Assembly: GCF_041886205.1 (NCBI RefSeq)
Contig: NZ_CP169029.1
Direction: 5' to 3' (one strand)
Length of the DNA: 64,000 nucleotides
DNA from: Escherichia coli
GTDB lineage: Bacteria; Pseudomonadota; Gammaproteobacteria; Enterobacterales; Enterobacteriaceae
Part shown: positions 51,001-54,000 of the stretch, in pieces
Layout of the letters: each line of letters begins with the position of its first letter
Position numbering within the stretch: position 1 is the stretch's first letter
Program-made: the position numbers

Positions 51001-54000
51001 CGGCTCAATGAGCGGCGCACTGCTGGTGCAATACGTTCAGGCTGATGTCTTACGGCAGATTTTGCCCATTCTGGTAATTTGTATCGGCCTCTATTTCTTG
51101 CTGATGCCAAAGCTGGGTGAAGAAGATCGCCAGCGCCGGATGTACGGTTTACCCTTCGCGTTAATTGCCGGTGGCTGCGTCGGTTTTTATGACGGATTCT
51201 TTGGTCCGGCAGCTGGATCGTTTTACGCACTGGCCTTTGTTACGCTGTGCGGATTCAATCTCGCCAAAGCCACGGCTCACGCCAAATTACTCAACGCAAC
51301 GTCAAATATCGGCGGTTTACTGCTGTTTATTCTCGGTGGCAAAGTGATTTGGGCGACGGGCTTTGTGATGCTGGTGGGGCAGTTCCTCGGCGCGCGCATG
51401 GGTTCACGACTGGTGTTGAGCAAAGGACAAAAGCTGATCCGCCCGATGATTGTTATTGTCTCGGCGGTGATGAGTGCCAAATTACTTTACGATAGCCACG
51501 GACAGGAGATCCTCCACTGGTTGGGGATGAACTAATGAACAGTACACACCACTACGAGCAGTTGATTGAAATTTTTAATAGCTGCTTTGCCGATGATTTT
51601 AATACCCGTCTGATTAAAGGCGACGACGAACCGATCTATCTTCCTGCTGATGCGGAAGTACCGTATAACCGAATCGTCTTTGCTCATGGCTTTTATGCCA
51701 GCGCAATTCATGAGATTTCGCACTGGTGTATTGCCGGGAAAGCGCGCCGTGAGCTGGTTGATTTCGGCTACTGGTATTGCCCGGACGGACGCGATGCCCA
51801 AACGCAAAGCCAGTTTGAAGATGTTGAAGTGAAGCCGCAGGCGCTCGACTGGTTGTTCTGTGTGGCGGCGGGATATCCGTTTAACGTCAGTTGCGACAAT
51901 CTGGAAGGGGATTTCGAACCGGATCGTGTGGTGTTTCAACGGCGGGTACATGCGCAGGTGATGGATTATCTGACAAATGGCATTCCGGAACGCCCGGCAC
52001 GCTTCATTAAAGCACTACAAAATTATTATCACACGCCGGAACTTACGGCGGAACAGTTCCCGTGGCCGGAAGCGCTCAACTGAAGCCAGCGCCACGTTTT
52101 ACAATGAGGAAAGAAGATGATCGCGGAGTTTGAATCACGCATTCTGGCATTAATCGACGGTATGGTTGACCATGCCAGTGATGATGAGTTGTTTGCCAGT
52201 GGGTATTTGCGTGGCCACCTGACATTAGCCATCGCAGAACTGGAAAGTGGTGATGACCACTCCGCTCAGGCGGTGCATACGACCGTTAGCCAGAGTCTGG
52301 AAAAAGCCATTGGTGCTGGTGAATTGTCGCCGCGTGACCAGGCGCTGGTGACCGATATGTGGGAAAACCTGTTTCAGCAGGCGTCACAGCAGTAAGTTGC
52401 GGCGTCTGTAGCACCATGCCTGATGCGACGCTTATCGCGTCTTATCAGGCCTACACGTCACACGTAGGTCGGATAAGGCGTTCACGCCGCATCCGGCAAA
52501 CACTGCGAGAGCAGATTACCCAGCCTTAACTGCTTTACCCTTCAACAATTTCCGCACCCATAGCCTATTCGGATATAACGCCGCCAGCGTACTGGCATCC
52601 ATCGGAATCGGTTCTTCACTCATCTGTGCCGCCAGAATCTCGGCGCACAGTGGGGCAGAACACAAACCACGCGAACCCAAAGCAGCAAGCATAAAGAGAT
52701 CGTCATAAACCGGCGCGCTTACCGCCTCATCTTTCTGCTCCGCCAGCGACGTATATTCCACGAGTGTTGCCTCATAATCAGACACGTTGCCTACCATTGG
52801 CAGATGATCGCGAGTGGCACAACGCACACCGCAGCGCGCCTCTTTATCACTGATATCAACCTCTTTTGCCCACTGCGCCTGCGGGAAACAATCAATCAAC
52901 CGCTGGCGATTCTGCTGCTGATCGTCCTCACTGTACGCTGTATCTTCGCTGCCGCGATGATAACTGGCACCAATACAATGGTGTTCATTCGCCGGATTTT
53001 GCGGCGTGAGATAACCGTCATAGCACAGCACCTGTTTCAGTTTTACCAGTTCCGGCGTTGTCGGAATATGGCTGACCTGACCGGCAACCGAATACACTGG
53101 CAGAGACGACGTTTGGCTGAAACGGCTGATTTGATGCCCATTCGCCAGTACCACCACACTATGCGTCGCTTGCTGATCACCTGCAAAATTCAACAACCAA
53201 CAATCATCCTTACGGGATAAATCCTGTAACTGATATTGATAATGAATCTGCAAACCCTGCTGTTGCGCCTGTTCCAGCGCATTACGGGTCAGTTCTGCCG
53301 GACACAGCCAGCCACCTTGCGGATAAGTAATACCACTGCAATTTGTCGTAACGCCCGTAATTTGTTCAACCGCATTTGCCTCAACGGCTACAGCCAGTTC
53401 TTGGGGTAAATCCATTGACAACATCTGTGCGATTTTATGCTGGCTTTTCTCATCCCAGCCTAACTGCGTGACGCCGCACCAGTCATGATCAAATTTAACG
53501 GGTAATTGGTCGTAAAACCGACGAGCAAAAGTAAACGCATTAGAGAAAAAGCGGTTTAGCGCCTCATCGTGTTTGCTTAATAACGGATACAACGCCCCCT
53601 GGCGATTGCCGGAAGCACCCAGCGCGGGGGCTTCATCCGCGCAATAAAGCGTTACCTGCCAGCCGCGCCGTAATAACGCCAGCGACAACAACGCGCTGGC
53701 AATACCACCGCCGATAATCGCTACTTCCCGTTTGCTGCTGCCCGTACGATTAAACCACGGCGTGGAGCAGGGGAGTGGTAATGTCTGTTCCATCACCCCA
53801 CAAAGCATTTCCCGTTTGCGCCCAAAGCCCTTACGTTTTTGCATCGTGAATCCGGCTTCCTGCAAACCGCGGCGGACAAAACCGGCAGAAGTAAATGTCG
53901 CCAGCGTGCCGCCCGGACGCGCCAGCCTTGCCATGGCGTTAAACAGATTTTGCGTCCACATATCCGGGTTTTTCGCTGGCGCAAAGCCGTCCAGAAACCA

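Follow-up and report, generated by a model that had tools for sequence, protein, structure and literature searches.

Which elements occupy the short space between the convergent genes yfcL and mnmC of Escherichia coli, and what do they do at the ends of the two transcripts that meet there? The question was raised by a stretch of 64,000 nucleotides (assembly GCF_041886205.1, contig NZ_CP169029.1), hereafter called the window, in which two GC-rich imperfect palindromes of the repetitive extragenic palindromic (REP) type had been predicted at 52418-52498 from the sequence alone. The REP family has been under study since the 1980s. Our analysis confirmed this observation and supported its interpretation, and the elements concerned are already known. 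The pair corresponds to REP171 of the EcoCyc database. We regard it as very probable that REP171 is a bacterial interspersed mosaic element (BIME) of the BIME-2 type, consisting of one Z2+Y unit, whose hairpins take part in Rho-dependent termination and in the protection of mRNA 3′-ends.

Annotation and the listing of open reading frames (ORFs) agreed with the original prediction on the identity of yfcL and mnmC and on their convergent arrangement. The spacer between them comprises 120 bp (52396-52515). A 901-bp query around the REP pair was assigned to the E. coli chromosome, matched 5,425 of 5,426 complete E. coli genomes and was 100% identical to strain LHM10-1, with epmC, yfcL and mnmC as the annotated features beneath the match. 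Harris et al. 2026 (bioRxiv 10.64898/2026.03.23.713779), whose supplement table uses EcoCyc REP coordinates, list REP171 as 'Convergent, 2443869-2443790, mnmC, yfcL'. Coordinates were converted by subtracting the K-12 coordinate from 2496286, and K-12 2443790-2443869 thereby becomes 52417-52496 of the window. Since the K-12 coordinates map onto the pair, it is, as judged by position and sequence, the already catalogued REP171. The element of K-12 MG1655 is base-for-base identical over the whole pair, and the flanks of the window and of K-12 differ at 52409 (T and G, respectively), 52414 (C and G) and 52522 (A and C). The copy of the K-12 RefSeq record that we used contained no REP features at all and was thus uninformative; none was present even after yaaX, where a REP annotation would be expected.

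The assignment of both palindromes to the REP family was examined by several kinds of comparison. A degenerate REP pattern matched 52418-52454 with 0 mismatches, the number of matches expected from 100 dinucleotide shuffles of the 64-kb window being 0.00. Published Y, Z1 and Z2 reference sequences, which Durrant et al. 2024 (PMC11208160) print in their methods section, served as blastn-short queries against the whole window. They revealed a Z2 match at 52418-52454 (E=3.6e-7), a Y match at 52464-52498 (E=8.8e-11) and a partial Z2 match, covering the core, at 55920-55939 (E=1.4e-6); beyond these three, no significant match was obtained in the 64 kb, all others having E values of at least 0.08. 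By global alignment the left unit was closest to Z2, with 34/37 to both published Z2 references and thus above Y or Z1; to Z1 it could be aligned only by introducing three internal gaps. The right unit was closest to Y, with 33/35 to the reference of Durrant 2024 and 34/35 to that of Nunvar 2010. Hence, matches to the consensus families, hairpins and the EcoCyc listing all speak for the two REP-type palindromes that had been predicted. Furthermore, at least 24-38 matching places per genome (medians) were counted across 5,425 E. coli genomes, and the REP pair is the only repeated part of the queries used. Both REP171 and REP170, a second element downstream of fabB that is described below, are intergenic.

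RNA folding, which had been suggested as a further check, also came out in favour of the prediction. Folding of the 120-nt spacer RNA gave z=-4.7 for the plus strand and z=-4.05 for the minus strand, and 0 of 200 shuffles were as good. In the predicted minimum-energy folds each unit makes its own hairpin. The arms of the inverted repeats, located by mechanical inverted-repeat detection, are 82-86% complementary between the units. As single-stranded DNA the Z2 unit gave a hairpin of -12.8 kcal/mol (z=-5.5), and both units of REP171 showed an unpaired GTAG, a 7-bp outer stem, a 2x2 AA/GC internal loop, an inner stem of 4-5 bp and a loop of 4-5 nt. A hairpin with GTAG and an AA/GC mismatch is the architecture of E. 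coli group 2 REPs (PMC8266576), and GTAG located 5′ of the palindrome is a conserved feature of E. coli REPs (PMC8266576, PMC3333891). Palindromes of this family are imperfect and 29-37 nt long. The tetranucleotide was found at 52464-52467 (+), 52454-52451 (-) and, in REP170, at 55908-55911 (+). Matches to naRNA4 (Rfam RF02564) remained below threshold on all three units (37.5, 32.7, 29.2 and 22.4 bits compared to a gathering score of 59.5); they reflect the common REP hairpin only and not membership in RF02564.

On the plus strand the spacer reads, in this order, GTAGCACCA, TGCCTGATGCGACGCTTATCGCGTCTTATCAGGCCTAC, ACGTCACAC, GTAGGTCGGATAAGGCGTTCACGCCGCATCCGGCA and AACAC. The left palindrome is GCCTGATGCGACGCTTATCGCGTCTTATCAGGCCTAC (52418-52454), and the Z2-type unit to which it belongs (52417-52454) has a 5-nt loop, one base more than the consensus. 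GTAGCACCA resides inside a 93-bp unit that is repeated in Escherichia sp. E1V33 and must therefore be counted as mosaic element, not as unique spacer. According to Ton-Hoang et al. 2012 (PMC3333891), a BIME-1 is composed of Y and Z1 with a long L linker binding the integration host factor (IHF), while a BIME-2 is composed of Y and Z2 with a short S linker and s, l or r flanks, and is usually found in tandem with a copy number that varies between strains. The present element contains a Z2 and a Y unit, whose GTAG heads are on opposite strands and whose ends face each other across a short linker of 9 nt without an IHF site. The window, K-12, UTI89 and E69 each carry a single unit. On these sequence features the element was filed as a one-unit BIME-2 type, not as BIME-1. 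A BIME-1 or RIP element was rejected, as the left unit is a Z2 of 38 nt, the 9-nt linker is too short for an IHF-binding L linker, and the IHF consensus WATCAANNNNTTR was absent from 52396-52515 even when up to one mismatch was allowed.

The comparison with known systems leads to the same picture. Like BIME-1, RIP and RIB elements, REP171 places a pair of inverted REPs where transcription units end, but Z1 measures 29 nt there and Z2 38 nt here, and the linker there is long and binds IHF. BIME-2 arrays, such as those flanking yafM or at sucC-sucB, share with it the unit types, their opposite orientation, the short linker, the inclusion of the flank motif in the repeat and a lineage-variable copy number; they differ in that REP171 comprises one unit only, here and in all E. 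coli genomes sampled, and has the longer Z2 loop. The BIME array REP325/naRNA4 (RF02564) at yjdM-yjdN belongs to the same hairpin family. It contains twelve hairpins instead of two, in a tandem instead of a convergent gene context, and was shown to cause partial Rho-dependent termination and to stabilise mRNA (Harris et al. 2026). REPINs, the REP doublets mobilised by RAYT transposases in Pseudomonas and E. coli, resemble the pair as inverted doublets, since its complementary arms could form one long hairpin. In contrast to REPINs, each unit is predicted to fold alone, and the arms belong to different unit types, Z2 and Y.

To which processes might two such hairpins contribute? No Rho-independent terminator was detected between 52250 and 52650, where the number of terminator-like sites was 0 on either strand. 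Both mRNAs must read into the stable hairpins of the spacer. Downstream of them, between 52490 and 52580, the C/G ratio of the plus strand is 2.2-3.5 in 60-nt windows. RNA rich in C and poor in G typically marks a Rho loading site. An unbiased in vitro Rho-binding peak has been reported on the yfcL-sense strand at K-12 2443697-2443835, flagged as overlapping a bicyclomycin-sensitive transcript at K-12 2442731-2443800 (bioRxiv 10.64898/2026.03.23.713779). In the window the peak covers 52451-52589 and overlaps the mnmC-side end of REP171 by 44-45 nt, and the transcript covers 52486-53555, antisense to mnmC. The same study describes REPs as acting generally as partial Rho-dependent terminators and as stabilisers, and about 30% of the convergent spacers as carrying a REP.

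From one published in vitro Rho peak, one bicyclomycin-sensitive transcript and the base composition, we infer a role in termination and stabilisation. Both converging mRNAs, aroC-mepA-yfcA-epmC-yfcL on the plus and mnmC on the minus strand, contain the pair in their 3′ untranslated end. The two stable hairpins would pause RNA polymerase, and they would block 3′-to-5′ exonucleases and in this way shield the 3′-ends of both mRNAs, a function that has been proposed for REPs of convergent gene pairs generally. Rho would load on the C-rich RNA immediately downstream of the hairpins and would end the aroC-to-yfcL transcript before it has run far antisense into mnmC. A control by ribosome stalling is not expected at REP171, because both units are at least 16 nt away from the stop codons; the stems start 22 nt past the stop codon of yfcL and 17 nt past that of mnmC. 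The 15-nt rule for translational effects of REPs comes from work of 2015, as reported in PMC12306157.

Several points weigh against such a role. The Rho-binding peak resides mostly downstream of the REPs, in the antisense mnmC sequence, and could work without them. REP effects depend on the context, and in a model case 2-4 hairpins were insufficient for strong Rho dependence (bioRxiv 10.64898/2026.03.23.713779). Furthermore, about 8% of the genomes possess mostly a 55-bp spacer with one hairpin lacking GTAG, and in another 3.8% the pair is split by IS621. As such short and split alleles exist, the intact pair is dispensable. Finally, REPs may be found in convergent spacers merely because insertions are harmless there.

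The alleles behind these figures were studied in the 5,426 complete E. coli genomes. Of these, 4,769 (88%) had the long allele intact, the criterion being a match at a single place to 80% or more of a 311-bp query. The pair had been called ordinary core-genome furniture; ordinary it is, but since about 12% of the complete E. coli genomes are without an intact pair, it is not strictly core. IS621, an IS110-family bridge-RNA recombinase element, was found within the Z2 unit with a locus-specific junction in 208 genomes. The insertion point, ATCAGGCCT^AC, is the CT core of ATCAGGCCTAC, which the window contains as an exact match. In strain MS6192 (L006 1224-2503) the junctions read ATCAGGCCT|TGTATT... 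and ...ACAGTATCT|ACACGTC. ATCAGGCCTAC is a natural target of IS621, whose bridge RNA targets REPs (PMC11208160).

The other genomes, approximately 450, mostly carry the short allele. It contains a single Y-like hairpin without GTAG, TAAGT-AATGTGCCGGATAAGGCGTTCACGCCGCATCCGGCA, and was located at L004 497-551, L005 497-551 and L007 2492-2546, all orthologous to 52396-52515. Two sub-forms were distinguished: the mismatch dinucleotides are AA/GC in L004, and in L005 and L007 they are on opposite arms as GC/AT. The stem of L005 and L007 looks as if it had been flipped round an unchanged loop, which may be due to a template switch inside the palindrome. The short allele is not simply a deleted version of the long one, as nothing in the latter corresponds to AATGTGCC.

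We also compared the locus outside E. coli proper. A degenerate DNA pattern for the C-terminus of YfcL, searched against genome contigs, identified only two loci, those of E69 and of Escherichia sp. E1V33. Both lineages carry Z2+Y; the identity is 92.4% over 11.9 kb for E69 and 94.6% for E1V33. As it is found beyond E. coli proper, the pair is old. In E1V33 (L010 4254-4526) the yfcL-mnmC locus contains three tandem 93-bp Z2-linker-Y units; every copy starts with GGAGCACCAT, and copies 1 and 2 have a Y unit with a deleted or damaged GTAG. The three-unit allele was not seen in E. coli, where the best match to a three-unit query spans 178 bp only; an apparent coverage of 96% arose because several pieces of the query matched one and the same stretch of the subject. 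At the stem pair 52469/52496 of the Y unit, the window and K-12 have T-G, UTI89, E69 and E1V33 have T-A, and the consensus has C-G. Such a stepwise compensatory change fits a hairpin that has been retained.

The series of alleles, comprising the hairpin without GTAG, Z2+Y, the pair split by IS621 and the three-unit array of the sister lineage, might even be imagined as a natural tuning dial for Rho termination of the yfcL-operon transcript and hence for antisense RNA reaching into mnmC. We consider this very unlikely. Were it true, it would give strain-specific expression of MnmC and YfcL without any change of coding sequence or promoter.

Independently of these alleles, the 52000-52900 segment was at least 99% identical in only 203 of 5,453 matching records, the majority showing 95-99% identity, and B2 strains (UTI89, ST131) were approximately 92-93% identical across the central 311 bp. 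Because of these low shares and the B2 figures, the 3′-end of mnmC and the spacer can be regarded as rather diverged among phylogroups.

Two other roles of the pair were weighed, neither of which excludes a role at the RNA level. First, REP171 could be a neutral or selfish passenger, i.e., a non-autonomous BIME- or REPIN-like element that has been placed and maintained by TnpA_REP and is tolerated in a promoter-less spacer without any function for the host. Single-stranded REP hairpins with GTAG and a bulged stem are substrates of this domesticated transposase (RAYT, yafM) (PMC8266576, PMC3333891), which is thought to spread and amplify the REP elements of E. coli; yafM itself lies outside the window. 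By its sequence, REP171 offers all prerequisites for TnpA_REP action in vitro: GTAG, the bulged stem and the CT cleavage sites of the inverted REP (iREP) consensus, TGCC|TGAT (52417-52424) and GGCC|TACA (52448-52455), as defined in PMC3333891. A passenger would also account for a copy number that varies between lineages from 1 hairpin through 2 units to 6 units, and for the loss or interruption of the pair in about 12% of the genomes. These observations are opposed by the retention of the pair in E69 and E1V33, beyond E. coli proper (92.4% and 94.6% identity over approximately 10 kb), which marks it as old, by the two-step path from C-G via T-G to T-A, which suggests that the hairpin has been kept, and by the overlap of the Rho data with the pair. 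An element devoid of any host function is thus possible but doubtful.

Second, the pair could act at the DNA level as a preferred binding and cleavage site of DNA gyrase, which would remove positive supercoils between the converging transcription units. REP171 has a Y unit and sits between convergent genes, and BIME-2 elements are significantly enriched in gyrase cleavage sites in vivo, mainly in Y units and in their loops and mismatches, independently of transcription (PMC6379681). However, it is 'a subset' of BIME-2 that shows this enrichment, notably multi-copy arrays such as sucC-sucB and tldD-yhdP, while REP171 is a single unit, and the supplementary text of the same paper contains no entry for yfcL, mnmC or the REP171 coordinates. 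We therefore rate a gyrase site as rather unlikely. That the palindromes are no REPs at all but chance GC-rich palindromes or plain intrinsic terminators of yfcL and mnmC has practically no chance of being correct: convergent spacers do commonly hold terminator hairpins, but there is neither a T-run behind either hairpin nor a terminator-like site, and the possibility was refuted by the consensus matches (E values of 1e-7 to 1e-11, with 0 expected from shuffles) and by the recurrence of the same sequences dozens of times per genome.

The recognition of two catalogued elements, REP171 and REP170, matters little by itself. What has been added is the documented variation of one REP locus across 5,426 genomes, which includes the intact pair, the short allele, IS621 inserted (recurrently or by inheritance) precisely at its bridge-RNA target, and a tandem amplification in a sister lineage. 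Together with the published Rho-binding data, this makes the locus a convenient natural test case for the current notion of REPs as context-dependent regulators of 3′-ends.

Table 1. Features of the yfcL-mnmC and fabB-yfcJ regions (positions refer to the window)
Feature	Position	Strand	Remarks
yfcL	52117-52395	+	Stop codon 52393-52395; from ORF listing and two annotated records
Outer (tail-side) BIME flank motif GTAGCACCA	52408-52416		GGAGCACCA in other strains; within the 93-bp unit tripled in E1V33
Z2-type REP unit	52417-52454	-	38 nt; GTAG head on minus strand; plus strand reads iREP ...GGCCTAC
Natural IS621 bridge-RNA target ATCAGGCCTAC	52444-52454	+	11 nt, CT core 52451-52452; exact match
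Short linker ACGTCACAC	52455-52463		9 nt; separates CTAC and GTAG ends
Y-type REP unit	52464-52498	+	35 nt; GTAG head on plus strand
C-rich, G-poor stretch, probable Rho loading region	52490-52589	+	yfcL-sense, antisense to the mnmC 3′-end; from composition and published peak
mnmC	52516-54582	-	Stop codon 52516-52518; from ORF listing and two annotated records
fabB	54681-55901	+	From ORF listing and two annotated records
REP170, degraded Z2-type unit	55907-55944	+	GTAG 55908-55911; 30/37 to Z2 reference; E=1.4e-6
Variable tail after REP170	55945-55969	+	Ends in CCTCCGGCA, which resembles a REP 3′ arm and is its only REP-like part
fabB intrinsic-terminator-like hairpin AAAAGGGAACC-CGAT-GGTTCCCTTTTT	55977-56003	+	Not REP; 11-bp stem
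yfcJ	56166-57344	+	From ORF listing and two annotated records

The second REP element was found in the tandem spacer downstream of fabB, where a REP-like sequence had been proposed at about 55905-55970. This held true for 55907-55944, while 55945-55970 turned out to be a variable tail only. In the supplement table of Harris et al. 2026 the entry for REP170 reads 'Tandem, 2440379-2440344, fabB, yfcJ', and K-12 2440344-2440379 corresponds to 55907-55942 of the window; the unit is the same element as EcoCyc REP170 of K-12 MG1655. It is closest to Z2, with an identical loop, but its outer stem has been re-paired as GTCGGA/TCCGAC, and its hairpin (z=-3.15) contains a 3x3 internal loop in place of the AA/GC 2x2 loop. 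The GTAG of REP170 was predicted to pair with a downstream TTAC, by which the hairpin is lengthened. The tail gave no significant blastn-short match to the REP references. Indels set the lineages apart here: the tail is missing from E69, E1V33 possesses a shorter form, and the post-fabB site of E1V33 (L010) exhibits a triplicated GTAGGTCGGA 5′ arm.

Behind this tail, the RNA fold of 55902-56012 (z=-5.1) includes the 11-bp stem of a further hairpin at 55977-56003, which is flanked by AAAA and TTTTT and conserved in K-12, E69 and E1V33. It is likely to be the intrinsic terminator of fabB, and it has the look of a bidirectional one. The simple terminator scan missed it, probably owing to pairing of its A and T runs, by which the stem is lengthened. 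A Rho-binding peak at K-12 2440169-2440283 (bioRxiv 10.64898/2026.03.23.713779) corresponds to 56003-56117 and thus begins just downstream of this hairpin. The fabB-yfcJ spacer also revealed one weak terminator-like match on the minus strand (56074-56097), with a 9-pair stem containing 3 GC pairs, which is within the expectation from shuffles.

Further REPs at 63.27-63.60 kb, suggested by weak seed matches, were rejected, as the region contains no REP-like palindrome and is overlapped by long ORFs. In the whole window a single Rfam match reached the gathering score, a tRNA-Arg (anticodon CCT) at 29737-29811 on the minus strand, which we take to be argW, an integration site for prophage-like elements in E. 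coli.

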